DNA from: Alphaproteobacteria bacterium
GTDB lineage: Bacteria > Pseudomonadota > Alphaproteobacteria > SHVV01
DNA length: 64,000 nt
Assembly (NCBI GenBank): GCA_965261735.1
Contig: OZ253470.1
Location: 1,553,479-1,617,478, forward strand
Direction of reading: 5' to 3'
Below the pieces are notes generated by a model. It was not told where the DNA came from, searched no databases, and was given only the letters and a program-made list of their open reading frames with translations. The position numbers were made by a program, and so were the translations under genes. Shown here piece after piece: positions 5,795-34,855 of the stretch (its first letter is position 1; each line of letters starts with the position of its first letter).

Positions 5795-5960
5795 TCGCGC
5801 TCCCCCCCCTCCCTACCCTCCCCCACAAGGGGGAGGGGGGTGTGCGCGGTGTCGCGTCTCGCCTAGCTCTTCTCTCGTTGGCGGAAGAAGCCCCGCGAGA
5901 TCAAAGCCGTAGCCCCCCTCCACCTTGATGGGGGAGGGATGGGGAGGGGGTGATCCCCGC
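5795..5960. repeat. REP-like GC-rich palindromic elements / possible argG terminator hairpins
   Basis: Two imperfect palindromes (CCCTCCCCCacaaGGGGGAGGG at about 5812-5838, and CCCCCTCCaccttgatGGGGGAGGG at about 5903-5935) in the intergenic space after argG. Confidence 0.5.
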
Positions 5961-5977
5961 TGCAACGAGGTAAGGCG

Positions 5978-6319
5978 CTAGTCCGACTTGAACCGACGCC
6001 GGAGCGCGAGCAGGAAGAGGGCGACGAAACTCAGCACAAACAGATTGTAGAGGGCGGATACTACTGCGAGCCAAAGCGGAACCTGAGGTCCGCCCGGAAA
6101 GAGTGTCGGCGGTCCCTGCCCAGCGGCTCGCAGAAAGTCGAATGGACGAAACGTTTGCCGAAGCGCGACCCAGAGGCTCTCCTGTACCGTCTCCCAGTGC
6201 GGCACCCAGAGACCCTCGGGTGCGGCGAGACTAATTAGGACAATCACGAAATAGGCGGCGAGCAACCCAACCAACCATACGAGCGGTCGCCCGATGCTCC
6301 GCCCATAGTCGGCGGCATA
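5978..6319 (-). CDS. small integral membrane protein (2-3 TM helices)
   Basis: ATG at 6317-6319 is in the same frame as the upstream pentapeptide gene, 12 nt after its TGA; hydrophobic helices; no recognised family. Confidence 0.4.
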   Translation of the reverse strand, partial: YAADYGRSIGRPLVWLVGLLAAYFVIVLISLAAPEGLWVPHWETVQESLWVALRQTFRPFDFLRAAGQGPPTLFPGGPQVPLWLAVVSALYNLFVLSFVALFLLALRRRFKSD

Positions 6320-6331
6320 TTCGTAGAGCCA

Positions 6332-6967
6332 TCAGGCGAGCATCACAATCCGTGGCGTCCCCGGCTGGCGCCGGCGACTTTTTTGTTCGAGGGCGAAGAA
6401 CATGCCCTGTTCGTCACGGGCGCGAAGTTGCTCCATCGCGAGCTTGAGGGTGCGGTAAGCTGCTACCGCACCCTCACTCCGCGTATCCGGAAACCCTTTG
6501 ATGCCGGGAAACTCGGTGCCGTGATGAAGCTCCGCCCCGTGAAAGTCGGGCGCCTTCTCGAAGATCGCAGGTCGGAAAACTGTTGGATCACCGAATCTTC
6601 TGTTCGTAAAGGATACCTGACCATCAAAATGAGCATGCGAAAAACCAATCACTCCAAAGTCGTCCTTGCCAGGCCTAGTCCACGAGGCTGCGGAAAAATC
6701 GGCGTGATCTCCAAAACTACATTCGTCGAAGCTCACTTCGTCCACGAATACAGCACCTTTGAAGTTAGCTCGACGCCCAAATTTCGTCGAGGAGAACCGA
6801 GCTTCACGATCGAATGTCGCACCCACAAAAAGCGCGTCGTCACCAAAAGCTGCGAACACTGACTTACTCAGGTTCGCTCCATCTCCGAAAACAACGTTGT
6901 CGAATTTTACGTAATTACCGAGCACCAGGAATGCCAGGGTCGCAACAATGTTCACTCGCTGGGTCAT
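6332..6967 (-). CDS. pentapeptide repeat-containing protein with an N-terminal TM segment
   Basis: Tandem A(D/N)(L/F)xx pentapeptide repeats (ANLSKSVFAAFGDDALFVGATFDREARFSSTKF...); lower GC than the surroundings; start chosen at MTQRV (6967), the ORF runs to 7063. Confidence 0.7.
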   Translation of the reverse strand: MTQRVNIVATLAFLVLGNYVKFDNVVFGDGANLSKSVFAAFGDDALFVGATFDREARFSSTKFGRRANFKGAVFVDEVSFDECSFGDHADFSAASWTRPGKDDFGVIGFSHAHFDGQVSFTNRRFGDPTVFRPAIFEKAPDFHGAELHHGTEFPGIKGFPDTRSEGAVAAYRTLKLAMEQLRARDEQGMFFALEQKSRRRQPGTPRIVMLA

Positions 6968-7063
6968 GTCATTCTCCGTTGCATGAATAGTTGTATATGC
7001 ATCGTTATCGGCTTGGAGGGCCCGCGTGGCGGCCTCCGGTAGGGGACCAGTGTTTGTGTTCAC

Positions 7064-7825
7064 CGGCCCTCACTCCTTACCAGCCTTCATCGTTCGCCTT
7101 GCCCTCGCTGCGCACCGGCCTTCGTCGTTCACCTGCCCTGATTGCGCGCCAGCCCTATTCGAAGCGGCTTACGGTCTGTCATCTGAAGCGATGGTTGGGC
7201 TCTCTCGGTTGAAGTCATGATAGTTGTATATACGCTTATTGGTGCGGTGTTCAAGGCCGCGGGCTCTTCTTTTTGTGGAGATCGTCCGTCCTTCTGTGAG
7301 ACGCCTGTCTTTGCGTGAGTTCGCCCTTCTCTTACGCCGATTGCCGGCCTTCGGGCGAGACCGCCCTCCTCTTACGGGATAGCCCGTCCCCCTCGGGGAC
7401 CGCCGGTCGCGCACCGCCCGTCGCGCGTTATCCCGCGCCCGCTCCGTCGCGGGCGGTCGCTCAAACTATCTCGCGGACCCGACGGCACCCCCACGTCGCC
7501 GCCGCGCCCCTCGGGGCCCGTCTCGGGCTGTGCTGAGCGCTCGGAACGGCCGCCGCCACGAGCATGCGCAAAAGGCCGCGTGATCGAGCCTATCGGCGAC
7601 ACCGTGTCTGGCCCGGCAGTCCCTCGCGCAGCTCGCGGACCCGGATGGCACGGCCGCGTCGTCGCCGCGCCATCGGCGCCCGTCTCGGGCTAGTCTGGTC
7701 CGCTCGAGACGGGCGTAGCTCACGCGACACGCAGAGGGCCGCGTGATCGAGTCTATCGGCGATACGGCGTCCGGCGTACGCGTGCGCGGCGCCGGTGCGA
7801 GATTCCACAACGAGGAGAGAGTTCA
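7064..7825. repeat. about 760-bp non-coding, repeat-rich region upstream of the RidA-family gene
   Basis: ATAGTTGTATAT pair (about 6988 and 7222); six degenerate 18-20-nt tandem repeats at about 7275-7400; roughly 165-bp tandem duplication (GCCCGTCTCGGGCT at about 7519/7683 and GGCCGCGTGATCGAG.CTATCGGCGA at about 7573/7738); 11-bp-arm palindrome CGCCCGTCTCG...CGAGACGGGCG at about 7680-7720. Confidence 0.5.
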
Positions 7826-8357: not shown

Positions 8358-9503
8358 CTAGTAGCTGTCCCCGTTCAGGGCTTCCCATACCAGGCGCTGG
8401 AAATGGTGGGTACCATGCTCGCTGCGCCAACTGCGCTCGCGGTCGACCATCAGCCGGCCCTGCACGTAGCCGCGCGCCTTGAGCCCCTTCTGCTGGCTGA
8501 CCATGGCGGTGATGTCCTCGGCCATGATGCGGTCGCGGTAGTTGGCGATGTGGCCCAGGTCGGCCGCGTCCGGCGGGTCGTTGAGGCAGAAATTGTCGAG
8601 CCGCTGGCGGCTGGTCTCCGGGCCGGTCGGCCGGGTCGCTTGAATCTTGAAGTTGCTCGCGCCCTGGTGCGCGATGAAGATCAGATTCGGCCACATGTAC
8701 CAGATGTTGACGTCGGTGATCGCGCGGCTGCCGAAGTCGTAGGGTAGCTCCTCGTCCTCCAGCCCCTGCCGGCCGCGGATGATGTGCTTCGCCCACAGGC
8801 GGTGCTCGTTCGACTCCCAGCTCATGTCGAGATAGGCGCCCTCGCCCTCGCCCATGATCGTATGCAGCACCGGGCAGTGGTAGCACTCGTTCATGTCGGG
8901 AAAGAGCTTCCAGTTGTAGGCGCCGGGCAGCGGGTCGCTGACCGCAAGCTTGAGCCGGTCGAACGCCGGCACGGTGGCCAGGATGTCATCGGCGAGACCG
9001 GGGTACAGATCGGCGATCGGGGTCGGGTCCGGATCGAGGCTGACGAACACCATGTGCAGCAGGGTATCGACCTGAATCTCCGGCAGGCAGAAGTCGCCGG
9101 TATCGAAGCCGGCCACGTTCTCCGAGTTCCCAGCGGCCTTCAGGTTGCCCTCGAGATCGTAGGTCCAGGCATGGAACGGGCAGGTGATCATGCGCGTATT
9201 GCCCTTGCCCTCGAGGAGGATATGGCCACGGTGCATGCACACGTTGTAGAAGGCGCGCAAGGCCCCGTCCCTGGCGCGGGTCACGAACACCTTCTGGTCG
9301 AGGATATCGGCGGTCAGGAAGTCGCCGGGGTTGGCGAGGTCGTGGGCGTAGCCGACGAGCTGCCAGCTCCTGAACCAGATCGCCTCCTTCTCGCGCTCGA
9401 AGATGGCCGGGTCATAGTAGTACGACGCCGGCAGGGTCCCCGACCGCTCCGGATCAGAGGCAAAGCGACTGTGCGGAAGTTGCGCTGCGGGACTCGCGGT
9501 CAT
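8358..9503 (-). CDS. Rieske [2Fe-2S] aromatic ring-hydroxylating oxygenase, alpha subunit
   Basis: 381 aa; Rieske motif CMHRGH...CPFHAW; C-terminal catalytic domain. Confidence 0.85.
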   Translation of the reverse strand: MTASPAAQLPHSRFASDPERSGTLPASYYYDPAIFEREKEAIWFRSWQLVGYAHDLANPGDFLTADILDQKVFVTRARDGALRAFYNVCMHRGHILLEGKGNTRMITCPFHAWTYDLEGNLKAAGNSENVAGFDTGDFCLPEIQVDTLLHMVFVSLDPDPTPIADLYPGLADDILATVPAFDRLKLAVSDPLPGAYNWKLFPDMNECYHCPVLHTIMGEGEGAYLDMSWESNEHRLWAKHIIRGRQGLEDEELPYDFGSRAITDVNIWYMWPNLIFIAHQGASNFKIQATRPTGPETSRQRLDNFCLNDPPDAADLGHIANYRDRIMAEDITAMVSQQKGLKARGYVQGRLMVDRERSWRSEHGTHHFQRLVWEALNGDSY

Positions 9504-9749
9504 GCTGCCCTCAACCTTGTTTCATTGCGCATTCATTGAGCTAACAATAACCCAGCAGGGTGTGATCCCGCCACACAGACAACCGCGGCGGACCTAACGG
9601 CCGTGGGCCCGCCGCGGCCCGTCCTTCGTAAGCCGGTCTTTCCCCTCGCGATAGCGGGATGCTATTCAGGTGCGTGCCGGCGACGGCGGCGCTGTTGGAA
9701 CACCCTATGCTGTCCGGACAGGTCCGGAACAGCGGAGATGAGGAATGGG

Positions 9750-12734: not shown

Positions 12735-12794
12735 TTGCCGTAGGAAGCTTGTCTAGCCTTGTGCGGGCGGGTGCGGCGAGCGCCGCAGCACTAC

Positions 12795-13148
12795 TTAACG
12801 CCGTGCCTTGCGCTTCGCGTATCGAATATCGCGGGCCGCTTTTTGCTGCGCTTTCAGTTCGATAGCTTGGGCCGCCTGCTCAGCTTCCGCGGCGGCGGCG
12901 GCGGCAGCTTGCGCGGCGGCCAGCCCAGCGGCTTGGCGGGATTCTTCGGCTTCCCGTGCGGCGTTCTCGACCGCCAATCGGGCGTCCTCGGCCGCGCGCG
13001 CCGCTTTGCGTTCGGCAATGCGGGCCTTCCGGGCGACGCTTGTGGCCAAGCGGGCCGCCCGCTGTTCGACGGCGATCGGATCATCGTGCGACGGGCGGGC
13101 TCGAAACTTCTCCAGCGCCGCCTGCTTGGCTTTCGTGGCCGTGTTCAA
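12795..13148 (-). CDS. hypothetical Ala/Glu/Lys/Arg-rich coiled-coil protein
   Basis: 117-aa ORF with low-complexity helical composition; no recognised domain. Confidence 0.35.
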   Translation of the reverse strand: MNTATKAKQAALEKFRARPSHDDPIAVEQRAARLATSVARKARIAERKAARAAEDARLAVENAAREAEESRQAAGLAAAQAAAAAAAEAEQAAQAIELKAQQKAARDIRYAKRKARR

Positions 13149-13261
13149 ACGCTCTTTCCAGTCACCGCCTTTGAAGGCGCCTCTGGAATCGTCGCGGGTG
13201 GTTCTAGCTATGAGTGAGTCCTTTCGCTGGCGGTCGTGCTAGCCCCAAAGAACGGAAGTTG

Positions 13262-13410
13262 CCGCCAATCTCGATCGTTGGGCGGAACACCAGCCTGACT
13301 TCTCGCGCTCGAAGATGGCCAGATCATAGCCGTACGATGCGGGCAGCGTCCCCGACCCCTCCGCATCGGCGGGGAAGCTGTGGTGCGGGACTCGCGGTCA
13401 TCTCACCCTC
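13262..13410 (-). other. partial duplicate of the 5' end, start codon included, of the Rieske oxygenase gene (original at about 9360-9503)
   Basis: About 110 nt alignable to 9390-9503 at roughly 85% identity, including the GGGACTCGCGGTCAT start region; diverges exactly at the start codon. Confidence 0.6.
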
Positions 13411-13420
13411 TGGGAAGTCT

Positions 13421-13470
13421 GGGGCGGGCGATGGGATTCGAGCCCACGACCCCAACCTTGGCAACCCGGA
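13421..13470 (-). tRNA. tRNA-Gly(GCC) 3' half (anticodon loop to CCA), a likely att-site remnant rather than a functional tRNA
   Basis: Minus-strand TTGCCAAGGTTGGGGTCGTGGGCTCGAATCCCATCGCCCGCCCCA matches the anticodon loop, T-arm and acceptor 3' strand of tRNA-Gly(GCC); no complementary 5' acceptor strand or D-arm lies upstream. Confidence 0.6.
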
Positions 13471-13842
13471 AACTACGCCGTCGCGGGAACGAGCGCTAGT
13501 TCATTGCAGTGCGCCGGAATGCGCCGGAGGACGCAGTCCCTGGCGTGGTCCAAGCAGTAAGGGGATTTGTGACGGCGTTGATTCTGGTGAAATCTCGTGA
13601 ACGGCGGTGGAGGCACGCAGCTGTAACCACCAATGTAACCACCGCCGTTTTTCGGGGGACATGCGCGTTTCGTTTTGAAGGCTGGTCGTACCCCTCAGAG
13701 GGTGAAACGGACATCGCGTGGAACTCGGCGGATGGCCGCTCGCGACCCTATGCTTGACCGGCGACGTCGCAGGTTCAAATCTTTCCCGCAACCAAAACAA
13801 GGCGTGGCGCCTGATCTCGCGCCGCGACGTTGGGCTCCGCGA

Positions 13843-14085
13843 TTAGGCAACCTCTTCCGTGACAACACTCTCCTCGACGTACGCTTTGAACTCCCCCTGA
13901 ACGCCCTCAACGGTCTTTCCAAATTTAGGGCCGAGCATGAGTTTCTCGATCAATGCGCCGACGGGCCAGTATCGGGTCTGCATGTCGATAAAGGTGGTGG
14001 CGCTGGTTCGGTTGGTGCCCAGACTTTCGAGCCGCCATCCTCCACTTGCTTCTTTGACAAAAGCCGGTAGTCCTTCGAGTGACAA
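13843..14085 (-). CDS. hypothetical protein, possibly a fragment, abutting the IS left end
   Basis: 80-aa ORF with protein-like composition; ends 40 bp from the IS1595-family terminus. Confidence 0.25.
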   Translation of the reverse strand: MSLEGLPAFVKEASGGWRLESLGTNRTSATTFIDMQTRYWPVGALIEKLMLGPKFGKTVEGVQGEFKAYVEESVVTEEVA

Positions 14086-14125
14086 TCTGAAGCTTTCGTT
14101 CTCCTTCCACTCGAGAACATTCTCC

Positions 14126-15230
14126 CTTTCCTATCCGGTTTACACCCACACCCACTAGGGCTAGAATGGGCGCAACCCGGATATAGGGGAGCGCGCCATG
14201 GATGTTCTCGACCGCGCCGATCTCCCATTCCCGCATTCGCTACCCGAGTTCCAGCGACTTTTCCCCGATGATGCGGCCTGCGCCGCCTACCTGGAGAAAG
14301 CCCGCTGGGGAGACGGCTTTGCCTGCCCGCACTGCGGCACGGCGGGAGAGCCGTTCCACTTTGAAAACCGCCCTGGCGTCCTGCGCTGCCGCAAGTGCCG
14401 CCAGAACACCGGGCTGACGGTGGGAACAGTGATGGAGCGTAGCCACACTCCGCTGAACGTCTGGTTCTGGGCCGCTTATCTGGTCGCCAGTCAGACGCCC
14501 GGCATGTCCGCCGTGCAGTTTCAGCGGCAACTTGGTCTTTCGCGCTACGAGACGGCCTTTCAAATTCTCCACAAGCTCCGCTCGGGCATGGTGCGGCCCA
14601 ACCAAGACAGGATCGGTGGACAGCCCAAGAACCATGTTGAGGTGGACGAAACCTGGGTTGGCGGGCGAACGCGTGGGGAAGGCCGTGGTGTTCACCACAA
14701 GGTTCCCGTCTCCTGTGCCATCGAGGTGCGTCATCGAAAGCCGGGCACCAAGCTCGACAACCGGAAAGACGGACGCTATGCCGGACGCGTTCGGCTCGCC
14801 GTCGTGCTCGACCGTAGCGCCGAGTCGCTCTGTGGGTTCGTCGAGAGCACCGTCGCGCCGCGATCGCTGATCGTTACTGACGATTGGAGCGGCTATGCTG
14901 GCCTCGGTAAGCGCGGCTATGAGCACTTCGCTGTTGCCGAGTGTGGTGATCCAGAGGTTGCCGAGCAATACCTGCCGATCATCCATCTGGTTTTCGCCAA
15001 CCTGAAGACGTGGCTGATCGATATCCACCACGGCGTTAGCCACCAGCACCTACAAGCCTACCTCAACGAGTTCACCTTCCGCTTCAACAGGCGGTTCTAC
15101 CCGTTCAACGCCTTCCGCTCATTGCTCGGCATCGCGGGCGACACCTCTGCTCCAACCTATGCCGAGCTTTACTCGGGAGAGTGGCGGCACCCTACATGTA
15201 GCGGTCATGGGCGTTAACCGGATAGGCAAG
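14126..15230 (+). mobile_element. IS1595-family insertion sequence, copy 1 (1105 bp)
   Basis: Imperfect 22-bp terminal IRs (CTTtCCTATCCGGTTTACACCC ... GGGCGTTAACCGGATAGGCAAG); identical termini on all copies; no clean TSD at this copy. Confidence 0.85.
14198..15217 (+). CDS. IS1595-family transposase (N-terminal zinc ribbon plus DDE domain)
   Basis: 339 aa; CPHCG...CRKCRQ zinc ribbon followed by a DDE_Tnp_IS1595-like core. Confidence 0.85.
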   Translation: MDVLDRADLPFPHSLPEFQRLFPDDAACAAYLEKARWGDGFACPHCGTAGEPFHFENRPGVLRCRKCRQNTGLTVGTVMERSHTPLNVWFWAAYLVASQTPGMSAVQFQRQLGLSRYETAFQILHKLRSGMVRPNQDRIGGQPKNHVEVDETWVGGRTRGEGRGVHHKVPVSCAIEVRHRKPGTKLDNRKDGRYAGRVRLAVVLDRSAESLCGFVESTVAPRSLIVTDDWSGYAGLGKRGYEHFAVAECGDPEVAEQYLPIIHLVFANLKTWLIDIHHGVSHQHLQAYLNEFTFRFNRRFYPFNAFRSLLGIAGDTSAPTYAELYSGEWRHPTCSGHGR

Positions 15231-15258
15231 CATCGATTTTATCGAGATTCGCGATGTC

Positions 15259-16639
15259 CTAGCAGGGTGCTGAAAAAGTCATCATTGCCGGGCCTTGAAC
15301 TCGGATTCATCGCCGAAATGAAATGAGATTTCGTGTCTTAGGGTGAAACCGTCTTCAATCTCGACCGATCCGATGCCCTGGGCTTCGTCCAGTTCGATGA
15401 TCTGCCACTTTGCGGTCAGCGGCGTGCCGGTATCGCCCGTCATGTTGGCGCCTCCGCCAGCAGTCTGGGTAGTCGGACGAGGTTGTAGGCGGCCAAGGCC
15501 AGGGTGAACGAAGCGTCGACCCGGTGGCGGCCCCGGAATTTGGTCTTGCTCAATCCCGCGCTCGTCTTGACCCAGCCGAAGACCTCCTCGATGCGCTTGC
15601 GGCAACGTTGGCTGACGCCGTAACCGGGATGGCGCGTCGTGCGCCCGTCTATCTTGGTCTTGCGCCGCTTGCCGGTCTTGGTGACGTGGTCCTGGACGGC
15701 GATATGGGGGGTCACCTTGCGGTGCCGCAGTTCCTCGACAAAATCCGCGACGTCAAAACCCTTGTCCCCGCCCACCGTGATCCGACGCCGCCCGCCTCTA
15801 CTCTCCACCGGGCGATGCCTGTCGATCAGATCAAGGGCGGCTTCGCGTTCCGCCGTGCCCGACGCAATGGTCACGCCGCCGCCGACTGCCAGACCATGGC
15901 GGTTCTCCGTCAGCGCATGGCCCATGTAACACAGCTTGCTTTCCCGGCCATTACCCTTGCGATAAAGCCGGGCGTCCGGATCAGTGGTGCTTGCATGGGT
16001 CGCGTTCGAGCGTTTCTCGCCATGAAAATCCCGCGCGGCGTTGCGCCCCGATCCCCCGTCGCCATCGTCCTCACCTTTGGGACGAAAGCTCTTCATCGAC
16101 GCCCAGGCCTCGATCAATGTTCCGTCTACCGAAAAATGATCCCGGCTCAATAGTCCCCCTACCTTGTGGTGCTGGATAACCCCCGCAAGCAGCTGCCCCG
16201 AAACCTCCGCCTCCAGAAGACGGTCCCGGTTGTGGCAGAACGCGCTGGCGTCCCACACGCCATCGTCCAGCCCAAGCCCCACAAACCAGCAAAACAGCAT
16301 GTTGAAGTTTAGCTGCTCCATCAGCTGACGCTCCGAGCGGATCGAATAAAACGCTTGCAACAGTAACGCTCGAAGAAGCTTCTCCGGCGGGATCGATGGG
16401 CGACCCATGTGGGAATAAAGCGTCTCGAACTCCGAAGATAGAGACCCCAATACGTCGTTCACGATCTCACGGATCAGACGCAGCGGATGATCATCCGGAA
16501 CACGCTCTTCCAAGTCTACGTAGCTGAATAAATTGCCACTGCTTTGATCTCGACCCCGCATGCCATCCTCCATCACTCGAAGGAATCACAGAATCATGTC
16601 ACAACTGCAAAGGCGAGGACTTTTTCAGCAGCCTGCTAG
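15259..16639 (-). mobile_element. IS5-family (InsH-like N-terminal domain) insertion sequence, 1381 bp
   Basis: 22-bp IRs CTAGCAGGGTGCTGAAAAAGTC (15259-15280) and their reverse complement GACTTTTTCAGCAGCCTGCTAG (16618-16639), one mismatch. Confidence 0.8.
15440..16576 (-). CDS. IS5-family DDE transposase
   Basis: 378 aa; InsH N-terminal domain (LRALLLQAFYSIRSERQL...) and DDE core; a small 53-aa ORF (15282-15443) lies downstream inside the IS. Confidence 0.8.
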   Translation of the reverse strand: MMEDGMRGRDQSSGNLFSYVDLEERVPDDHPLRLIREIVNDVLGSLSSEFETLYSHMGRPSIPPEKLLRALLLQAFYSIRSERQLMEQLNFNMLFCWFVGLGLDDGVWDASAFCHNRDRLLEAEVSGQLLAGVIQHHKVGGLLSRDHFSVDGTLIEAWASMKSFRPKGEDDGDGGSGRNAARDFHGEKRSNATHASTTDPDARLYRKGNGRESKLCYMGHALTENRHGLAVGGGVTIASGTAEREAALDLIDRHRPVESRGGRRRITVGGDKGFDVADFVEELRHRKVTPHIAVQDHVTKTGKRRKTKIDGRTTRHPGYGVSQRCRKRIEEVFGWVKTSAGLSKTKFRGRHRVDASFTLALAAYNLVRLPRLLAEAPT

Positions 16640-16786
16640 CCCAACCCTAAACCGGAACCGCGATGGCCTCCGCTGTGGATAGCCGGCTTGCCTACGCCAG
16701 ACTCTCGGCGGTCGCTACGGCAAGCCGCCTACCCACAGCTAACAGAGGCTCCAACAACTCCTACACCACGTCCTGGGACACGACCT
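16636..16786 (+). repeat. 151-bp repeat, copy A (copy B at 43768-43918); probable terminal segment of an IS1595-family, IS1016-like element
   Basis: Near-identical 151 bp at both loci; copy A is followed by a degenerate HTH-type transposase N-terminus. Confidence 0.6.
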
Positions 16787-20658: not shown

Positions 20659-21340
20659 CTATCCGTCCATGGCCTGCTTGAGAGACGATGCGATGCGCTC
20701 CGATGCTTTCTGCAGGGGATCGTCGGCGAGATGGGCGTAGCGCGCGGTGGTCTGGGCCTGGGTGTGGCCGAGGATTCTCCCAACCATCGGCAAGCTCTCG
20801 CCCCCCATCACCGCCTCCGAGGCAAACGTGTGTCGGAGATCGTGGATGCGCACATCGCCGAGCCCGGCCGCCTTGCGCACCCGCCGCCACGGCTTCTGCA
20901 GATCGGTCAGATGCGCGCCTTCGGCGGTCCCGGTGATGACATAGGGATTACCCTCGACCCGCTTGGCAGTAGCCAGCACCTCGAGCGCAGGCCGGTTGAG
21001 GGGGATCGTCTTGGCGCCGGTCTTGGAATCAGGCAGGTGGATGCGGTCTCCCCGGATATGCTCCCACTTCAGGGTCTGAATCTCCATCAGACGCGCCCCG
21101 GTGTAGAGCAGCAGCCGGAACGCCGTCACCGCCGAAGGGGCAAAGGACTCCTCCTCGTCCAAGGCCCCGCCCAGACGCGCCAGCTCTTCCGCCGTCAGGA
21201 ACCGCTCGCGCTTGCGCTCCTTGTACTTGCGGATGTGGTAGCAGGGATTGGAGCGGTCCGGCCGCAGGCCCCAGGCTTCGGCCAGGTTCATCATCTTGGA
21301 CACTACGCCCAGCGTCCGGTTGCGGAGCGACTGCTACGTC
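20659..21340 (-). pseudogene. tyrosine recombinase (phage integrase family), C-terminal catalytic fragment; N-terminus missing
   Basis: R...HDLRHTFAS...Y catalytic boxes; the frame runs into a stop within 40 nt upstream; abuts IS1595 copy 2; closest relative is the fragment at 63712+. Confidence 0.8.
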
Positions 21341-21356
21341 ACTTCGAGGATCAGTC

Positions 21357-22461
21357 CTTGCCTATCCGGTTAACGCCCATGACCGCTACATGTAGGGTGC
21401 CGCCACTCTCCCGAGTAAAGCTCGGCATAGGTTGGAGCAGAGGTGTCGCCCGCGATGCCGAGCAATGAGCGGAAGGCGTTGAACGGGTAGAACCGCCTGT
21501 TGAAGCGGAAGGTGAACTCGTTGAGGTAGGCTTGTAGGTGCTGGTGGCTAACGCCGTGGTGGATACCGATCAGCCACGTCTTCAGGTTGGCGAAAACCAG
21601 ATGGATGATCGGCAGGTATTGCTCGGCAACCTCTGGATCACCACACTCGGCAACAGCGAAGTGCTCATAGCCGCGCTTACCGAGGCCAGCATAGCCGCTC
21701 CAATCGTCAGTAACGATCAGCGATCGCGGCGCGACGGTGCTCTCGACGAACCCACAGAGCGACTCGGCGCTACGGTCGAGCACGACGGCGAGCCGAACGC
21801 GTCCGGCATAGCGTCCGTCTTTCCGGTTGTCGAGCTTGGTGCCCGGCTTTCGATGACGCACCTCGATGGCACAGGAGACGGGAACCTTGTGGTGAACACC
21901 ACGGCCTTCCCCACGCGTTCGCCCGCCAACCCAGGTTTCGTCCACCTCAACATGGTTCTTGGGCTGTCCACCGATCCTGTCTTGGTTGGGCCGCACCATG
22001 CCCGAGCGGAGCTTGTGGAGAATTTGAAAGGCCGTCTCGTAGCGCGAAAGACCAAGTTGCCGCTGAAACTGCACGGCGGACATGCCGGGCGTCTGACTGG
22101 CGACCAGATAAGCGGCCCAGAACCAGACGTTCAGCGGAGTGTGGCTACGCTCCATCACTGTTCCCACCGTCAGCCCGGTGTTCTGGCGGCACTTGCGGCA
22201 GCGCAGGACGCCAGGGCGGTTTTCAAAGTGGAACGGCTCTCCCGCCGTGCCGCAGTGCGGGCAGGCAAAGCCGTCTCCCCAGCGGGCTTTCTCCAGGTAG
22301 GCGGCGCAGGCCGCATCATCGGGGAAAAGTCGCTGGAACTCGGGTAGCGAATGCGGGAATGGGAGATCGGCGCGGTCGAGAACATCCATGGCGCGCTCCC
22401 CTATATCCGGGTTGCGCCCATTCTAGCCCTAGTGGGTGTGGGTGTAAACCGGATAGGCAAG
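21357..22461 (-). mobile_element. IS1595-family IS, copy 2 (1105 bp) with an 8-bp TSD
   Basis: Perfect 8-bp direct repeat GATCAGTC at 21349-21356 and 22462-22469 flanking the identical termini. Confidence 0.9.
21370..22389 (-). CDS. IS1595-family transposase
   Basis: 339 aa, nearly identical to copy 1. Confidence 0.85.
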   Translation of the reverse strand: MDVLDRADLPFPHSLPEFQRLFPDDAACAAYLEKARWGDGFACPHCGTAGEPFHFENRPGVLRCRKCRQNTGLTVGTVMERSHTPLNVWFWAAYLVASQTPGMSAVQFQRQLGLSRYETAFQILHKLRSGMVRPNQDRIGGQPKNHVEVDETWVGGRTRGEGRGVHHKVPVSCAIEVRHRKPGTKLDNRKDGRYAGRVRLAVVLDRSAESLCGFVESTVAPRSLIVTDDWSGYAGLGKRGYEHFAVAECGDPEVAEQYLPIIHLVFANLKTWLIGIHHGVSHQHLQAYLNEFTFRFNRRFYPFNAFRSLLGIAGDTSAPTYAELYSGEWRHPTCSGHGR

Positions 22462-23046
22462 GATCAGTCATTCAAGGCTAAGTTGCTGGGCACGGACCGG
22501 CTGCGGGAGATGGCAAATCCAGGGCAGCTCGGACGCTCGTATGGTGACCACTTCGCCGCTGGATACCCGAAGAGCAGCTTCGAGCACCTGCGCCAGGCGG
22601 GCGGGGAAGGATCGGGCGTCGATACCTTTCTGTTGCTTGAAGACAGACTGGACCTCCGCATCCGCGTTGAAGCGACGCTGAGCCCTCTCTTCGACCGCGA
22701 CGTAGTGCTGGACTGGGATTCCGGTAGCCTCGTGCCGAAGGCGGCGATGCGGAAAAGTGGAGAGTCTTATCGCCTAGATCGTGACGAGTGTCACGGCATT
22801 AAGGAGCTCTTGGTTCTTCTCACGCACTTGTACGATGAGCGGCACGACTACCTGATCGTCGATGAGCCGGAACTCAATTTGCATCCGCAGTATCAAACGT
22901 TCTTCATGCAGGAGGTGCGCAAGGTTACCCAAAAGCAGGATGCGAGCGGAACCGCGAAAATCGTCTTCCTGATCACGCACTCGCCGTTCATACTGGTTTT
23001 GCGGTCGCACGATGACGTCAAGTCCGTGATATCGTTCGATCTCTAA
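22462..23046 (+). pseudogene. C-terminal half of an ABC/AAA_21-type ATPase (OLD / PARIS AriA-like); N-terminus with Walker A missing
   Basis: Walker B LIVDEPELNLHP, Q/H-loop-like FLITHSP; begins exactly at the IS copy 2 TSD. Confidence 0.55.
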
Positions 23047-23672: not shown

Positions 23673-23993
23673 CTATTCGATCGAAACCTGCGTTTTGGCT
23701 TCCTCGAGCAGGCGGGTCATCTCGTGACGCACTTTGTGCTCGTCCGTTGCGATCCCTTTGTCGGTCAGGTCGCCGAGCACCTTCCGCAACACATCGGCAT
23801 CTCCCGGCTCTTCAAAATCGGCGATCACGACCTGCTTGGCGTAGGCTTCGGCATCCGCGCCTGAAATGCCCATTTGCTCCGCTGCCCACAGGCCGAGCAG
23901 CTTGTTGCGCCGCGCGATGGTCTTGAACTGGAACTCCTGATCATGCGCGAACTTGGCTTCGGCGGCTGTTTTGCGGTCATCAAAGGCGGTCAT
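23673..23993 (-). CDS. DUF1476 protein, a homolog of the alphaproteobacterial F1Fo-ATPase inhibitor zeta subunit
   Basis: 106 aa; MTAFDDRKTAAEAKFAHDQEF...ARRNKLLGLWAAEQ is closely similar to the Paracoccus zeta subunit. Confidence 0.75.
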   Translation of the reverse strand: MTAFDDRKTAAEAKFAHDQEFQFKTIARRNKLLGLWAAEQMGISGADAEAYAKQVVIADFEEPGDADVLRKVLGDLTDKGIATDEHKVRHEMTRLLEEAKTQVSIE

Positions 23994-24346
23994 CGATTGG
24001 GCTCCTCAACTTCAGAAGACGGGGTCCACGCTTTATCCGCCTTTTCATTCTTGTATGCGATGAAGCCCGACGCACCCTTGCCTTTGGCGCGGCGTAATGT
24101 GTACCCATGATTGCCGAGTTTGAACTTCGGGTCATTCTCAAAGCCCGCGAGAGCCTCAACGATCTTCATCGCCACGGGATCTGGCTTGCTCTTGGCTTGT
24201 GAGGCAGCCTCCCGCGCCAGCCACCTTGCGAAGACCTCTTCGGCGAGGTCGTCGCCGACAGATTTTCGAAGCGCGTTCAATTTTCTCACCAGACCTTTTG
24301 TGAATCCGGTCTCATCGATAGCCATTTCCTGAACCTCGCATTTCAA
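23990..24346 (-). CDS. hypothetical protein co-transcribed with the DUF1476 gene
   Basis: 118-aa ORF; ATGA overlap with the downstream gene. Confidence 0.45.
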   Translation of the reverse strand: MKCEVQEMAIDETGFTKGLVRKLNALRKSVGDDLAEEVFARWLAREAASQAKSKPDPVAMKIVEALAGFENDPKFKLGNHGYTLRRAKGKGASGFIAYKNEKADKAWTPSSEVEEPNR

Positions 24347-24428
24347 GCCTCTTATACTGTCGCGTGGCCCGGCTGGTGCAACTGATTTCCACTGTTACAC
24401 GCCAGCTTGCCGTTTCCCTTTTCACGTC

Positions 24429-24441
24429 GTTCTACTTGAAC
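24429..24441. promoter_or_regulatory. palindrome GTTCtacttGAAC about 82 bp upstream of umuD-like; candidate LexA/SOS-type operator
   Basis: Perfect GTTC-N5-GAAC dyad in the umuD promoter region; not the canonical alphaproteobacterial GTTC-N7-GTTC box. Confidence 0.3.
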
Positions 24442-24522
24442 CGATGTGCTGGATGTATTCTACCGCCAAACCAAGTTAATCGCCGCCGGCGCCGATAAGG
24501 GAAATTTACAGGCCATTGCCTG

Positions 24523-24807
24523 ATGTTCACCGTAGTCACCCCCACGACGAGTCTTAGCCTCGACGATCATTTCATAAAGCGTCCTGCGGCGACATTCTTT
24601 GTCACGGTCGAGGGCGGCGGCATGGCCGAACACGGGATCCTTGCCGGCGATACCCTGATCGTCGACCGTTCACGTACGCCAGGCACGGGTTCCATCGTCA
24701 TCGCGGTAATCGTGGGCGAGTTGACCACCCGTCCGTTCGCCGCCCTCGATGGCGAGGAGGCCCACGTCTGGGGCGTCGTCGCCGGGGTGGTGCGGAGCCT
24801 GCCATGA
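24523..24807 (+). CDS. umuD: UmuD-like (S24 LexA-fold) protein lacking the N-terminal arm and the Ser/Lys catalytic dyad
   Basis: 94 aa; aligns to the UmuD C-domain but has GGGM in place of GDSM and no Lys at the K97-equivalent position; 4-bp overlap with umuC. Confidence 0.7.
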   Translation: MFTVVTPTTSLSLDDHFIKRPAATFFVTVEGGGMAEHGILAGDTLIVDRSRTPGTGSIVIAVIVGELTTRPFAALDGEEAHVWGVVAGVVRSLP

Positions 24808-26022
24808 GCATCTACGGACTGGCCGATTGCAATAACTTCTTCGTCTCCTGCGAGCGGGTCTTCCGGCCAGCCCTCGAAGGCCGTCCCGCCGTGGTCCTGT
24901 CGTCGAACGACGGCTGCATCGTCGCGCGCAGCGACGAGGCGAAGGCGCTCGGCGTCAAGATGGCGCAGCCGGCGTTCCAGGCGAAAGACCTCATCGAGAG
25001 GCATAGCATTGCCGTCATCAGCGGCAACCTCCAGTTCTATACCGACATGAGCAACCGGGTGATGCAGGTCTTCGGGGAACTGGTCCCGGCGGTCTCGCGG
25101 GAATACCGCAAGAGCTCACGGCATTCTGCCAGGACCTGAAACGCACCGTGCGGCAATGGACCGGGCTGCCGATCAGCATCGGCATCGCCGAGACCAAGAC
25201 CCTTGCCAAGATCGCCAACCGCCTCGCGAAGACCTCCGCCAAAACGGACGGCGTTCTCGATCTCACCGGAACGCGCTGGCGCGACAAGGCGCTGGCGTCA
25301 ACGGAAGTCGGCGATGTCTGGGGCATCGGCAGGCAGTACGCCAAGAAACTCAACCGCAACGGTGTCATGACGGCCCTCGATCTGACGAGCCGTCCCGATG
25401 GCTGGGTGCGCAGGGCGTCGGCGGGCTGAAGACGGTGCGGGAATTGCGCGGCGAAGACTGTATAGGCTTCGACGACATGCCCCAGCCCAAGCAAACGACG
25501 ATGGTTTCGCGATCCTTCGGCACGGAAGTGCGCGACTACGACGAGTTGACCAATGCGATCGCCATGTTCGCGACCGATGCGGCACGATCGATCCGCAGGG
25601 CCAATCTCGTCTCAACCTCGGTGAGCGTGTTCATCGAGACCAACCGTTTCGGCAAGAGCCCGCACCACGCTCCCTCCTGCTCGGAAGCACTGTCGCCCGC
25701 GACCAATAACACGAAGCATGTCGTGCGAGCCGCGCTGGCCGCTCTGAAGCACATCTACCGCGAGGGGCTGGCGTACAAACGCGCCGGGGTGATGCTGCTC
25801 GACCTCGTAGAAGCCGGCCGGGCGCCAATCTCGCTATTCGATACGCAGGATCCAAGGGACGACAAGCTGATCGAAGCGTTCGACGCCATCAACGACCGGC
25901 TGGGGCCGGGAGCGATCCAATTCGGCCCCGCGGCGCAGGCCGCGGCCTGGCGATCGAGCAGCGCGTTCCGCTCGCCCAACTACACAACCCGTTGGGAAGA
26001 CATCCCGAAGGTTAAAACCTGA
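24804..26022 (+). pseudogene. umuC: Y-family DNA polymerase V subunit UmuC, disrupted by about 2 frameshifts/deletion
   Basis: N-terminus MSIYGLADCNNFFVSCERVF in frame 0 to 25139, continues in another frame (25148-25429) and a third (to 26022); about 14 codons (EIYSIDEAFLDL region) deleted near 25095. Confidence 0.8.
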
Positions 26023-30318: not shown

Positions 30319-33300
30319 ATGCTCGACGCCCAACCGGCGGCGACCGCGCCCGCGCGTCCGCCTGCCATCCAGCAGCTTCAACCATCCCCAGCGATTGCCG
30401 ATACCACAGGCGTTCGCTCCAAGCCTGCCGCGTTGCTGGCCGCGGCAACCGCTCTGCTTCTTGAGCTGGAGGTGGGCCGGGCGCTCGATCCAAAGACCTT
30501 GCGCGAAGCCATGAGCGCGGCCTTCGGCGCCAATGACACGCAAGGAGCCTGGGTCTGGAAGGACGCCTACGAAGCGGCCGAAGCCGCGATGGTGCTGTTC
30601 ATCCAGCGCTACGGCCGCCTCATGCGCCGCGAGGCGGGCGCCGGACCCGGATCGGCCGCCGCCATGCTCGCCATGCTGGAGACCCTGGCGGCGCTGGAGC
30701 CGTCCCAGACACGGCGGTCGGAGGAACAGCTTGCCCTGCAACAGTTCTCCACTCCCTTGCCGCTCGCCTACGCCGCGCTGCAGGCCGCCGCCATCCGGCC
30801 CGGCGACATCGTGCTGGAACCCTCGGCCGGCACCGGCATGCTCGCCGTCATGGCCGAATGCGCCCTCGGCAAGCGCACCGATGACGCGCGATCGGGGGAT
30901 CCCCTGCACCTGAACGAGATTGCCGCCGTTCGCGCCGGGTTGCTTGCGCGATTGTTCCCAGATTCGCCGGTCACCCGTCATAACGCCGAGTCCATCGCCG
31001 ATTATCTGCCGGACCTGCGTCCCACCGTGGTGTTGATGAACCCGCCCTTTTCGGCGAGCCCCGGGGTCCAGCGCATCCGCCATGACGCGGATTTGCGCCA
31101 TCTTCATTCCGCCTTCTCCATGCTCCCGGCGGGCGGGCGGCTGGTGGCCATCACGTCGGCCGGCTGCATCCCGGGCGATACCGCCTGGAGCCGCGCCTTC
31201 GAGCGCCTCGATCCACCGCCGCGCACCGTCTTTTCCAACGCCATCGACGGGCGCGCCTACGCACGGCGCGGCACGACCTTCGATACCCGGCTGACCGTAA
31301 TCGACCGTGATCCCGCCAATGCCCAGGGCGTTCCGGTCGACGCGCGGGAATCCGTCCCCACCGCTGCCGGGTTGCTTGCAGCTATCGCCGCCAATGTGCC
31401 GCAGCGGCAGGCGGTCGTGCCAATAGCCGCGGCCCTTGTTCCGGCCGGCGATCTGTTCGGCCATGCCGCTGCACGGCCGGCCCCGCGTAAGTGGGCAGCG
31501 GCCACCGCGCCCAACACCAGATCCGCAGACCCGCAAGTCCGCGATTGGGGGCCGGTGGCCGAACTCGACTACGAAATTTCACCCGCCAACCCTGAAGGCA
31601 AGGTAAGCGAACCGGAGGCCACCCATGCCGGCGTCTACGAGCCCTGGTGTCCCCGGACCGCGCGCATTCCCGGCGCCTGCGAACATCCGACGCCGCTGGT
31701 GCAATCCGCCGCCATGGCGGCGGTGCCCCATCCCGTGCCGTCGTACCGCCCGATGCTGCCCGTGCATGTCGTGACGGACGAACTGCTGTCCGACGCCCAG
31801 CTCGAAAGCGTCATCCTCGCCGGTCAGGCGCATGAGCGCCATCTTTCCGCGCACTACCGCATCGGCGAGGGGTGGGAGACCGTCGCGCGTGTCGCCGACA
31901 ATGAAGATGACAACAGCGATGACGGCAAAAACGACGAGACAATTCACTCTGATCCCGAACCCGCCACCGATGCTACCGGCGATGGCGAAGCCCTGTCCGC
32001 GCCGGTGCGTTTCCGGCGCGGCTGGATGCTGGGCGACGGCACCGGCTGCGGCAAGGGCCGCCAGGTCGCCGCCATCATTCTCGACCACTGGCTGCGCGGC
32101 CGCCGCCGGGCGCTGTGGCTGTCCGCCTCCGACAAGCTGCTGGAAGACGCGCTCCGCGACTGGGCCGCGGTCGGCGGCAGCGAGGCCGACCTCATCCCAT
32201 TGGGTAAGTTCCGCCAGGGGGCCGAAATTCCACAAGAGGCCGGTATCCTGTTCGCCACCTATGCAACCTTGCGCTCGCCCGCCCGCCAGGGAAAGCGCTC
32301 GCGCCTCGAACAGATCGTGCGCTGGCTCGCCGATGGCATGGACGAAGACTCCCGCCATGCCTTTGGCGGCGGGACCGCGCGGCGATACCGCCCCCTCGCA
32401 GCAGGGGCGCGCCGGATTGCGTTTGCAGAACGCCTTGCCGGATGCCCGCATCCTCTATGTCTCCGCCACCGGTGCCACCACGGTGCCCGGACTTGCCTAT
32501 GCGCGGCGCCTCGGCCTGTGGAGCGGCGCGGATTCGGGCGGCGAGACGCCCTTCAAGCAACGCACCGATTTCGTCACCGCCATGGAGGCCGGCGGGGTCG
32601 CGGCGATGGAGGTGGTGGCCCGCGATCTGAAGGCCCTCGGGCTCTACCAGGCCCGTGCGCTCAGCTATGACGGGGTCGAGGTCGAGCTGCTCGAACATCC
32701 GCTGACGCCCGAGCAGCGGCGCATCTACGACGCCTATGCCGGGGCCTTCAAGGTGATCCACCGCAATATAGAAGACGCCCTGAAAGCCACCGGCATCATG
32801 GAAGGCGATGCCACCCTGAACAAGAACGCCAAGTCCGCCGCGCTGTCGGCTTTCGAGGGCGCGAAGCAGCGTTTCTTCGGCCATCTCCTGACCGCAATGA
32901 AATGTCCCTCGCTGATCCGGTTCGTGGAGGCCGATCTCGAGGCAGGTCATGCCTGCGTCATCCAGCTGGTCTCCACCGGCGAGGCTTTGCTGGACCGGCG
33001 CATCGCCGATATCCCCGTCTCGGAATGGGACGATATCTCCGTCGACCTGACGCCGAGGGAGGCGTGCCTTGAATATCTGGCGCACGCATTCCCTGTGCAG
33101 TTGCAGGAGCCATTCACCGACGACGAGGGCAATCTCATGAGCCGGCCCGTGACCGACGCCGAGGGCAACCCGGTCTTGTGCCAGGAAGCAGTCGCTGCCC
33201 GCGACTCTCTGATCGAGAAGCTCGCGGCGTTGCCGCCGGTGCAGGCGGCGCTCGACCAGATCCTGCACCGTTTCGGCGGCAAGGCCGTCGCCGAGGTCAC

Positions 33301-34855
33301 CGGCCGCTCGCGCAGGGTCCTGCGCATCGCCGATGCGTCAAGCGAGCGCCTGGCGCTGCGCAACCGTCCTGCGTCGGCCAACCTCGCCGAGACCGCCGCC
33401 TTCATGGCGGGCGACAAACGCATCCTCGTCTTCTCCATGGCCGGCGGCACCGGGCGCAGCTATCACGCCGACCTTGGCTGCGGCAACACTGCGCGGCGTA
33501 TCCATTACCTGCTGGAGCCGGGCTGGCGGGCCGACCAGGCGATCCAGGGACTGGGCCGCACCCATCGAACGCACCAGGCCTCGGCCCCCTTGTTCCGCCC
33601 CGTCACCACGGATGTGAAGGGCGAGCGGCGGTTCATTGCCACCATCGCGCGGCGTCTCGACAGCCTGGGCGCCATCACCCGGGGACAGCGGGACAGCCAG
33701 ACGGCCATGGGCGGCGGCGATGCCACCCTGTTCCGGGCCAGCGACAATCTGGAGAGCCCCTACGCCAAGGTGGCGCTGCGTCAGTTCTACATCGCGCTGT
33801 GGCGCGGCAACATTGCGGGCTGGTCCATGGACCGTTTCGAGGACGCCACCGGGCTGAAGTTGATCTGGGAAGGCTCGCTCAAGGAAGACCTGCCGCCGAT
33901 GCCCCGGTTCCTCAACCGGCTGCTGGCCCTGCCCATCGCCGAGCAGAACGAGTTGTTCGCCGAGCTGGAAACCCGCATCGAGGCCAACATCGAACAGGCC
34001 ATCGAGGCCGGGACCCACGAGCAGGGTGTCGAGACCATCCGGGCCGACTCCCTCACCGTGGCCTCGCGCGAGACGGTTCACGTTCATGAAGCCTCGGGCG
34101 CCGCCACCGAGCTTGTCGAGATCGTCCGCCGCGACCGGCTCGTGCCGCTGGCGGCCGACGATGCGCTCGCCATGCGGGACGGGCGTCCCGTCGTCAACAC
34201 CCGCTCGAAGCGCGCCGCCGTGGTCCTGCCCGCGCCGTCGCGGATGTTCGAGGACGGCGGGGTCGAGGCCCGGGTCCGCCTGGTCCGTCCCGCCGCCCGC
34301 GAGCCCATGGCCGCGGCCGAGCTTGCCGCCTCGAACTGGGAGGATTCCGGCGAAGATCGCTGGCGCGTGTTGTGGGATGCGGAAATCGAGGGGCTGCCCA
34401 GCCACACCGAATCCCGCCTGTGGCTGGTCACCGGCCTGCTGCTGCCCATCTGGGACCGATTGCCGGGCGAGAACATGCGGGTGCGCCGGCTTGCGACCGA
34501 TGCCGGGGAAAGCCTGCTCGGCCGGGTTCTGACGCCCGAGCAGGCGCACGCCTTCCGCGACGCCTTCGGACTGGCCGGCGGACCGGTCATGAGCCCGGCC
34601 GAGATGCACGAGGCGATTCTGATCCGCGGCGCGTCCTTCGATCTCGCCAACGGCTGGCGGCTTGCAAGGCGGCGCCTGATGGGCGCCGGCCGCGTCGAGA
34701 TCGAAGGACCGGCCGATAACGACCTCGCGGCGCTCAAGCGCATGGGGTGCGCCACCGAGATCGTCTCGTGGCGCACCCGTGTGTTCGTGCCCCAATACAT
34801 CGACCTCGGCCGCATCCTCGATCGCTGGCCGCTCGCGGATGCGAACCCGGCGTAA
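30319..34855 (+). pseudogene. large N6-adenine DNA methyltransferase / SNF2 (strawberry-notch-like) helicase fusion, frameshifted in helicase motif II
   Basis: MTase motif I (LEPSAGTGMLAV) and IV (NPPF); helicase Walker A GDGTGCGKGRQVA; frame switch near 32335-32375, where DEAH...APSQQGRAGLRLQ is split between frames; helicase C-domain and conserved C-terminal tail present. Confidence 0.75.

Follow-up and report, generated by a model that had tools for sequence, protein, structure and literature searches.

We found that the 3′ part of a tRNA-Gly(GCC) gene, without its 5′ half, lies about 13.4 kb into the window, the 64-kb stretch of DNA that was analysed in this study. We consider it probable that this fragment is an orphan attR-type scar, with no intact partner tRNA-Gly in the window, at the edge of a graveyard of several mobile elements that has been scrambled by insertion sequences (IS). 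The tRNA-Gly scar itself is a new instance of a familiar kind of feature. What lies beyond it points to the graveyard of several elements; one island exceeding 50 kb cannot be demonstrated.

The tRNA-Gly(GCC) fragment and its breakpoint

The scar and the sequences that immediately adjoin it are as follows:

13413–13419, minus strand: trailer of 7 nt after the CCA, GACTTCC, the counterpart of GTTTTCC in the 52-nt direct repeat of plasmid pMC4
13420–13464, minus strand: 3′ part of tRNA-Gly(GCC), positions 32–76, from the anticodon loop TTGCCAA to CCA, with no 5′ half
13465–13479, minus strand: element-side (P) arm stub, GGCGTAG-TTT-CCGGG, abutting the 5′ side of the anticodon loop

Read on the minus strand from 13464 to 13420, the fragment is TTGCCAAGGTTGGGGTCGTGGGCTCGAATCCCATCGCCCGCCCCA, 45 nt that extend from the loop with anticodon GCC through CCA and comprise, in order, the anticodon loop, the 3′ strand of the anticodon stem, the variable loop, the T arm, the 3′ strand of the acceptor stem, the discriminator and CCA. 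BLAST of a 53-nt query around the fragment against 7.3 Gb of plasmid and chromid sequence found 84 matching records, with identities of up to 92% (91–92% over 46–48 nt, E = 2e-9 to 2e-10). Among the matches was an Azospirillum tRNA-Gly(GCC), validated with ARAGORN, that is 91% identical to the 45 nt in the window and differs from it at four positions. The difference in the T stem is a compensatory pair (GAGGG/CCCTT versus GTGGG/CCCAT). The fragment also carries a T-to-C change at position 54 and another at the discriminator, position 73, neither of which was seen in any of the eight comparator tRNA-Gly sequences, and the copy of the fragment in a related metagenome contig (L003, described below) has one extra change, in CCA. 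The scar is non-functional and drifting, as seen from C54, C73 and these strain-specific changes.

ARAGORN found no tRNA gene within the 64-kb window and no functional cloverleaf of acceptor, D, anticodon and T arms at the fragment. An Rfam scan of the 2-kb stretch around the fragment returned no tRNA match, and the same scan on the stretch cut at the break returned a weak 5′-truncated tRNA with only 12.6 bits and E = 3. Rfam is therefore indecisive alone, and the identity of the fragment rests on BLAST and on alignment to validated genes; by both, the original prediction of a tRNA-Gly(GCC) 3′ portion of about 50 nt with no 5′ half was accurate. The CCGGG directly 5′ of the loop is unable to pair with GGTTG, the 3′ strand of the anticodon stem, the 3′ strand of the acceptor stem has no partner, and the 83-nt stretch folded no better than its shuffles (z = +1.07). 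The unpairable CCGGG and the fold indicate a 5′-truncated tRNA piece. They also rule out a complete tRNA with an odd 5′ half, an alternative that had been raised together with the original prediction.

The best plasmid match in this unbiased BLAST search was another fragment, not a tRNA gene. On pMC4 of Sphingopyxis indica (NZ_CP076395.1), a fragment at 133503–133550 also starts at TTGCCAA and is preceded by CCGG. The neighbouring P4-like integrase, 260 nt off, is encoded on the opposite strand. ARAGORN placed an intact tRNA-Gly(GCC) at 227868–227942 of the plasmid, on the same strand as the fragment, and the two share an identical block of 52 nt that is made up of 45 nt of tRNA and GTTTTCC. 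Together they bracket a 94-kb conjugative element (about 133.5–227.9 kb), in which the fragment is followed in order by the integrase, chlorocatechol and anthranilate catabolic genes, Trb type IV secretion genes, TraG, a VirD2 relaxase, ParA, RepA, a toprim protein, strawberry notch and ParB. This layout defines a polarity: the element extends from the fragment on its non-tRNA side, with the integrase at the end next to the fragment and the intact tRNA at the opposite end. By analogy, the element of the window would lie above 13464, with its partner tRNA on the minus strand tens of kilobases away.

We fetched metagenome comparators with the pattern CCGG(N)TTGCCAAGGTTGGGGTCG, which gave six loci (L099–L104), none of which contained an intact tRNA. 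Because the search pattern required CCGG, the breakpoint shared by these six loci is so partly by construction; the motif GGCG(A/T)A(A/G) and the association with an integrase were not required by the pattern and are therefore independent evidence. The motif was found a few bases upstream in seven of the eight sites, window included. An integrase lies 190–260 nt from the junction, on the opposite strand, in six of seven comparators, namely pMC4 and five of the six metagenome loci. In those five loci the integrases are 50–84% identical to that of pMC4, start 190–255 nt off and read away from the junction. A scan of viral contigs for the junction gave 0 matches.

The window contains the att block of 52 nt, the CCGG(G) and the upstream GGCG(A/T)A(A/G), in which the spacer of the family motif, GGCG(A/T)A(A/G)-N9-10-CCGG(G), is 6–7 nt shorter than in the comparators. 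Past about 20 nt, we found no similarity between the element-side sequence of the window and the comparator P arms, so that with the short spacer the assignment of a P arm rests on a short motif. The conserved arm-type repeats of the family, GCTTCCCC and GGGGAAGCA, were absent from the 250 nt beside the window junction; L101 and L102 also do without them, and the repeats therefore define only a subgroup. No cognate P4-like integrase was present 190–260 nt from the window junction (13300–15300 contained no remnant and gave noise only), and no pMC4-type integrase or close homologue was found anywhere in the 64-kb window.

The tRNA identity starts at TTGCCAA, which places the crossover in the anticodon loop, a recognised sublocation. 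The fragment is a displaced piece of tDNA, the B′ part of an attR-type site, that is decaying through C54 and C73. It had been read from the outset as an integrase-type attR scar with the element at higher coordinates, and the breakpoint, which is that of pMC4 and of the six metagenome loci, bears this reading out against a random truncation.

The Rieske stub and the conserved chromosome

The other side of the scar abuts a copy of the start of a nearby gene:

8358–9503, minus strand: resident gene at full length, encoding a Rieske / Ring_hydroxyl_A oxygenase of 381 aa, to which the scrap corresponds
13299–13412, minus strand: pseudogene stub, comprising the ribosome-binding site and codons 1–35 of a Rieske oxygenase alpha subunit

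Ungapped, 13299–13396 matched 9387–9484 at 80%, and 13373–13410 matched 9475–9512 at 82%. With a 14-nt deletion allowed, the scrap (13299–13401) agreed with the resident gene at 89 of 103 aligned bases, or 86%, with a BLAST E of about 1e-19. The likeness includes the start codon and reaches back to the GAGGG ribosome-binding site. The ATG is at 13401–13399, 18 nt past the CCA, a stop codon follows in frame after the 14-nt deletion, and the scrap ends abruptly after codon 35 (...GAGCGCGAGAAG). The original prediction had described a copy of 110 nt, about 85% identical and with its start codon, and a full gene 4 kb off; both descriptions hold, the start-to-start distance being 3898–3912 nt. The adjoining 13262–13298, which had been included in the same junction, is part of neither the tRNA fragment nor the Rieske scrap.

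The N-terminus encoded by the scrap, MTASPAPQLP, resembles MTASPAAQLP of the resident gene, whereas the other 119 of 120 homologues are unlike it, even at 70–76% identity. Because this N-terminus is common only to the resident gene, the stub must come from the lineage's own gene or from that of a very close relative. The scrap and the resident gene have diverged by 14%, as against at most 1.5% between the strains examined here. Two novel joints bound the stub, one 11 nt from the att block and the other after codon 35, and the GACTTCC trailer leaves only 11 nt, ribosome-binding site included, before the stub ATG. A gene start 18 nt past the 3′ end of a tRNA is unusual in native flanking DNA, so the chromosomal side of the scar has itself been rearranged. 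The stub represents the inactive 5′ end of a lineage-specific copy of the oxygenase gene nearby. As to its route of origin, we infer that it could be what is left of an old paralogue, largely deleted, that once followed the tRNA-Gly gene, a local copy that has since decayed, or a donor allele imported with the element. A metagenome scan for the chromosomal flank CAGACTTCCCAGAGGGTGAGATGACC gave 0 matches, and there was no tRNA at the Rieske orthologue loci L088 and L089.

Two further ideas about the Rieske copies were weakened or rejected. Relatives group Rieske, isochorismatase and aldo-keto reductase genes, and the scrap might thus have been at its ancestral position. This idea was weakened; the aldo-keto reductases align at 34% over 83 aa and do not qualify as orthologues, and the isochorismatase that adjoins the locus in L003 shares only 44% identity with its L088 counterpart. 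The leader of the resident Rieske gene has TAGCTCA...CAAGGTTG, whose order and rough spacing follow the 5′ part of tRNA-Gly, a weak and post hoc likeness. Its local alignment score was reached by 10% of shuffles and by 11% of window segments, and two-block chains like it occurred about five times per shuffled window. With statistics like those of shuffles, the idea that a tRNA-Gly 5′ part hides in this leader was rejected as unproven.

To the left of the scar are genes for alcohol dehydrogenase, asparaginase II, RlmN, UDG, ArgG, an L-PSP protein, the Rieske oxygenase, an aldo-keto reductase, TypA/BipA and a DUF6481 protein. The two sides of the scar cannot be told apart by base composition, and 13464/13465 is the landmark for the edge of the hypervariable region. 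We found no island-free relative in the species-level genome collection, where the nearest TypA was 87% identical and had neither common neighbours nor a downstream tRNA-Gly. Four metagenome contigs (L001–L004, from ERZ25766206, ERZ28669063 and ERZ25068966) encode the Rieske protein unchanged and match the window at about 99.5% identity, and all four carry the stub and the tRNA piece. The stretch 12735–14125 is 98.5% identical in L002 and L003, compared with 99.4–99.6% over their longer alignments, a further sign of decay.

Right of the scar, the window and these four contigs present five structures. L003 departs from the window at 13778, where it is joined to a 5′-truncated isochorismatase gene. 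L002 departs at 14125, has no IS there and continues with an intact SRPBCC gene and then a TetR gene. L001 departs at 15230, the end of an IS copy, and L004 departs at 16639, the edge of a 150-nt repeat; both departures coincide with repeats and could be assembly artefacts, whereas the L003 and L002 junctions (13778 and 14125) are not at repeats. The presence of the scar in all four contigs, with differing right-hand DNA, indicates that the scar is old and fixed in the lineage and that the right side is in flux. The locus marks a boundary between conserved chromosome (ArgG through TypA and DUF6481) and a hypervariable, IS-driven region.

Mobile elements to the right of the scar

The features of the right-hand region that bear on the origin of the scar are listed here:

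13766–13794, plus strand: second relic, tRNA-fMet(CAT) from the T arm to the 3′ end, GTCGCAGGTTCAAATCTTTCCCGCAACCA, back-to-back with the tRNA-Gly relic
13924–14124, minus strand: 3′ part of an SRPBCC (Polyketide_cyc2) gene, cut by IS1595
14125–15237, plus strand: IS1595-family insertion sequence, copy A
20659–21322, minus strand: P4-like integrase, C-terminal 220 codons of 380 aa
26450–34855, plus strand: remnants of a conjugative-element backbone, a ParB-DUF2201 fusion and a frameshifted strawberry-notch helicase
61478–64000, plus strand: integrase cluster of int1, int2 and an internal fragment of the 380-aa type

Everything to the right of about 13.5 kb is mobile-element debris. The window has four full or nearly full copies of IS1595 and one partial copy, and other IS right of the scar comprise an IS5-like element, two IS256, one IS21 and another IS5. 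The region also contains UmuD/UmuC fragments, RecD2-like and DEAD helicases, a sox gene block, and VirB11 and HsdM fragments. The stretch 13469–14124 showed no similarity to plasmids. IS1595 copy A has no target-site duplication (CATTCTCC versus CATCGATT), whereas copies B and D keep theirs; the mismatch of its flanks marks a recombination or deletion joint. The missing half of the SRPBCC gene and the TetR gene were not found in the window. Thus, with copy A lacking its duplication and these sequences missing, contiguity is broken 660 bp from the scar.

The second relic is about 300 nt from the tRNA-Gly scar, on the opposite strand, and the L003 breakpoint (13778) falls inside its T loop. It matches, with two substitutions and a 2-nt deletion, a family fragment found some 160 nt upstream of the 380-aa P4-like integrases that L090 and L093–L095 carry. 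The truncated integrase at 20659–21322 has full-length relatives (96% identical) that adjoin a tRNA-Met/fMet 3′ fragment, not tRNA-Gly. The tRNA-fMet relic could be the decayed tRNA end (attL) of an island at 13.8–22 kb, or it could be another displaced fragment (attR). In either case, at least two families of tRNA-targeting elements have left scars less than 400 bp apart, back to back.

The backbone remnants resemble genes of pMC4, at 39% identity for the ParB-like protein and 55% for strawberry notch. They are ordered ParB then strawberry notch on the plus strand, the reverse of the layout expected for an element in a minus-strand tRNA-Gly, in which the integrase comes first and strawberry notch, ParB and the tRNA last. 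The IS copy beside them keeps its 8-bp target duplication, so a simple IS–IS inversion through it does not explain their orientation. The only secretion-system remains in the window are the VirB11-like fragment, and no relaxase was found among the open reading frames scanned.

At the far end of the window, int1 (61478–62431) lacks about 143 N-terminal codons, int2 (62428–63711) is full length and shares an ATGA overlap with int1, and the internal fragment of a 380-aa-type integrase is at 63772–64000. The integrases at 61.5–63.7 kb are only 24–28% identical to those of the pMC4 type. The tandem pair, with its overlapping stop and start codons, recurs at 92–96% nucleotide identity in three contigs (L096–L098), and the 11–21 kb fetched around it there contained no tRNA gene. 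In all, four integrase genes or fragments are on the correct side of the scar, none of them from the family tied to the tRNA-Gly att site. The original prediction had noted the three at 61.5–64 kb, which are present, and the one at 20659–21322 is a fourth. That the 61.5–64 kb integrases are the cognate recombinases, as a full model along its lines would have it, is not supported for this plus-strand tandem pair, given its distance from the pMC4 type and the lack of a tRNA gene in the sequence fetched around its relatives. The prediction had also taken everything from 13.4 kb onward as one or more integrated elements of more than 50 kb; mobile debris is indeed found throughout, but a single continuous island is unsupported.

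It is unlikely that one or more islands of more than 50 kb are still contiguous here, extending from 13.47 kb to an intact minus-strand tRNA-Gly(GCC) past 64 kb with the integrases at 61.5–64 kb as their own. Conjugative or integrative elements of 50–100 kb are of normal size, conjugative and integrase genes lie on the expected side, and the polarity agrees with that of pMC4, whose element is on the non-tRNA side with a same-strand tRNA 94 kb away. However, the integrase of this att family adjoins the fragment and not the intact tRNA, and the far-end integrases diverge from the pMC4 type and form, on the plus strand, a tandem module that has no tRNA gene in the sequence fetched around it in L096–L098. 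The expected layout would have ParB and strawberry notch the other way round, and near the scar there is the IS copy without a target duplication, together with the missing SRPBCC/TetR continuation. A tRNA-fMet relic and an integrase of the tRNA-fMet type would, moreover, lie inside the supposed island.

The history that we propose for the orphan scar is therefore one of several elements. A conjugative or integrative element with a P4-like tyrosine integrase would have recombined with tRNA-Gly(GCC) at the 5′ edge of the anticodon loop and given the tRNA a new 3′ half. The original 3′ half, 45 nt with the 7-nt trailer, would have ended up at the element's distal end and would now be the minus-strand sequence at 13413–13464, with about 15 nt of the element arm still attached (13465–13479). 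The integrase end of this tRNA-Gly element is missing, having been deleted or overwritten. To the right of the scar come the tRNA-fMet scar on the other strand and then a mosaic of IS1595, IS5, IS256 and IS21 copies, the remains of at least one conjugative element, an island with a truncated tRNA-fMet-type integrase and the tandem integrase pair. The Rieske stub is cut after codon 35 by a deletion or rearrangement.

Other origins of the scar and known islands

A different origin, which we regard as very unlikely, is that a tRNA-Gly pseudogene upstream of a Rieske paralogue was truncated in situ, its 5′ half lost by an IS-mediated or illegitimate deletion with no integrase involved. The region is IS-rich, at least one of its joints is clearly recombinational and the cognate integrase is absent. 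Furthermore, GGCGTAG resembles the start of the acceptor and D arm of tRNA-Gly (GCGGGCGTAGCTCA) and is readable as the product of an internal deletion. Yet the breakpoint is that of pMC4 to the base, where the fragment is demonstrably one of a pair of direct repeats that flank a conjugative element, and CCGG(G) and GGCG(A/T)A(A/G) recur in fragments beside integrases. This recurrence of the junction and the motif beside integrases makes them features of an element arm, not of a tRNA.

We also considered a bolder history, which we hold to be very doubtful. The scar and the stub may have travelled together as host DNA captured from an earlier, related host by the aberrant excision of a conjugative element, a fossil of a conjugative counterpart to specialised transduction, or one deletion may have removed two elements along with both intact tRNAs and left facing stubs; the element-side stubs of the two back-to-back tRNA relics do face each other. 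If either were true, the locus would record element-driven transfer or loss of flanking DNA and not a simple island edge. Most improbable of all is a hitch-hiked flank, in which the fragment and the Rieske stub were imported from a related donor by aberrant excision, as in specialised transduction, with the scrap as a foreign allele: the scrap is within 11 nt of the att block and is 14% diverged, against at most 1.5% between strains, while its N-terminus is like that of this lineage's gene only, but no donor arrangement of tRNA-Gly followed by Rieske was found (0 matches in the metagenome flank scan, and no tRNA in L088 or L089), and the contrast in divergence between the tRNA (2 of 45 bases) and the scrap (14 of 103 bases) appears too slight to count as evidence.

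Returning to the orphan scar in a graveyard of elements, this locus illustrates that an att scar can persist after its element has gone and can neighbour the scars of other elements. It is also a caution for island-finding programs that pair any tRNA fragment with the nearest integrase. Beyond annotation its significance is small; it provides a precise edge landmark in an uncultured alphaproteobacterium.

Among the known signatures of islands, none is commoner than a displaced 3′ fragment whose crossover is centred on the anticodon (PMC4383910). In the Islander collection, 3760 of 3919 islands have a 3′ tDNA fragment and 2083 islands have an anticodon-centred attP, the 'A' sublocation of Williams 2002 as cited in PMC4383910. 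Like such fragments, the one in the window is a 3′ tRNA piece from the anticodon loop to CCA with mobile-element genes on its non-tRNA 5′ side. It differs from them in that no partner tDNA lies in the window and that there is no cognate integrase as far as the window shows. It is also mutated at two positions that are invariant in the eight comparators, and Islander would list it as damaged or reject it. The tRNA-Met/fMet islands (L090–L095) share with the window an integrase, a cargo of rhomboid, 116-aa ORF and methyltransferase genes, and an fMet 3′ fragment; they concern the neighbouring relic, not the tRNA-Gly fragment.

The closest known system is the element of pMC4. Its family has an integrase 190–260 nt from the junction and arm repeats, both of which are absent in the window, and, in contrast to pMC4, the window has no Trb genes or VirD2 relaxase among the open reading frames scanned and its backbone remnants are inverted. 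The two nevertheless share the same att block (TTGCCAAGG...CCA and the trailer), the CCGG(G) junction and GGCG(A/T)A(A/G), and the same class of backbone, as judged from strawberry notch (55% identical) and the ParB-like protein (39%). As a by-product, this comparison defines the att site and the architecture of a family of tRNA-Gly(GCC)-specific conjugative elements, exemplified by the 94-kb element of pMC4.

A tRNA-fMet relic near the scar, and insertion sequences in the window

Back-to-back with the tRNA-Gly scar, the displaced 3' part of tRNA-Gly(GCC), lies the decayed 3' end of a tRNA-fMet, which extends from the T arm to CCA (13766-13794, + strand). This relic matched the att fragment located approximately 160 nt upstream of the 380-aa P4-like integrases in contigs L090 and L093-L095, and the breakpoint of L003, a metagenome contig closely related to the window, fell inside its T loop. 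A second related contig, L004, parts from the window exactly at one copy (16636-16785) of a perfect 150-nt direct repeat. Because an IS256 transposase gene begins right beside the other copy (43768-43917), the copy at 16636-16785 is probably a solo IS256 end.

An IS1595-family element of 1113 bp, whose terminal repeats begin CTTGCCTATCCGG, is also present in the window five times; one copy has an internal deletion and another is a 219-bp end fragment. Target duplications of 8 bp were retained at the copies designated B and D (GACTGATC and GTTGGAAC), the flanks of copy C agreed at six of eight positions, and copy A had no target duplication.

Genes and fragments to the right of the scar

Selected features to the right of the scar (strand where assigned)
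14125-15237, 21350-22462, 53662-54769, 60393-61427 and 56674-56892: IS1595 copies
23673-24005: ATPase-inhibitor zeta-subunit gene, adjoining the two fragments below (whole group 23673-26022)
24499-24807: truncated UmuD-like fragment
25156-26022: UmuC C-terminal fragment
30319-34855, +: strawberry-notch helicase gene
47776-51919: sulfur-oxidation genes flanked by IS21 and IS5 elements
61478-63711, +: two tandem Arm-DNA-bind_3 tyrosine integrase genes

The coding sequence for the strawberry-notch helicase falls into two reading frames that overlap each other (30319-32670 and 31832-34855); the gene is either a frameshifted pseudogene or the result of a sequencing error. The sulfur-oxidation block, which encodes a sulfur transporter, flavocytochrome c sulfide dehydrogenase, cytochrome c, SoxZ and SoxY, may be mobile cargo.

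The tandem integrase genes are paralogous (approximately 80% nucleotide identity), and their stop and start codons overlap as ATGA. The same pair was found in L096 (8817-11104), L097 (842-3429) and L098 (174-2761), and is thereby kept as one unit across several contigs. No tRNA gene was found within the sequence fetched around the pair in those contigs. L096 additionally carries a second, divergent integrase pair.

Variation within the conserved left part

A second variable spot (about 5830-7245) lies within the left part, which is conserved apart from this spot. Its inserts differ among the four related contigs, and their genes encode a pentapeptide-repeat protein, a metallo-beta-lactamase-fold protein and a UPF0236 transposase-like product. 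The leader of the resident, full-length Rieske oxygenase gene (9515-9543, - strand) reads TAGCTCA...CAAGGTTG, two blocks that follow the order, and approximately the spacing, seen at tRNA-Gly positions 8-43. The resemblance was not significant: 10% of shuffles reached the same alignment score, and similar two-block chains occurred about five times per shuffled window.

A conjugative element at tRNA-Gly(GCC) in pMC4

The Sphingopyxis indica plasmid pMC4 (NZ_CP076395.1) carries a conjugative element of roughly 94 kb (133503-227942; loci L086, L105 and L106), with chlorocatechol and anthranilate catabolic genes as cargo. The pMC4 gene table that we used contains no att-site or tRNA feature, but it omits RNA genes. 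The element is inserted at a plasmid-borne tRNA-Gly(GCC), and a 52-nt direct repeat marks its boundaries.
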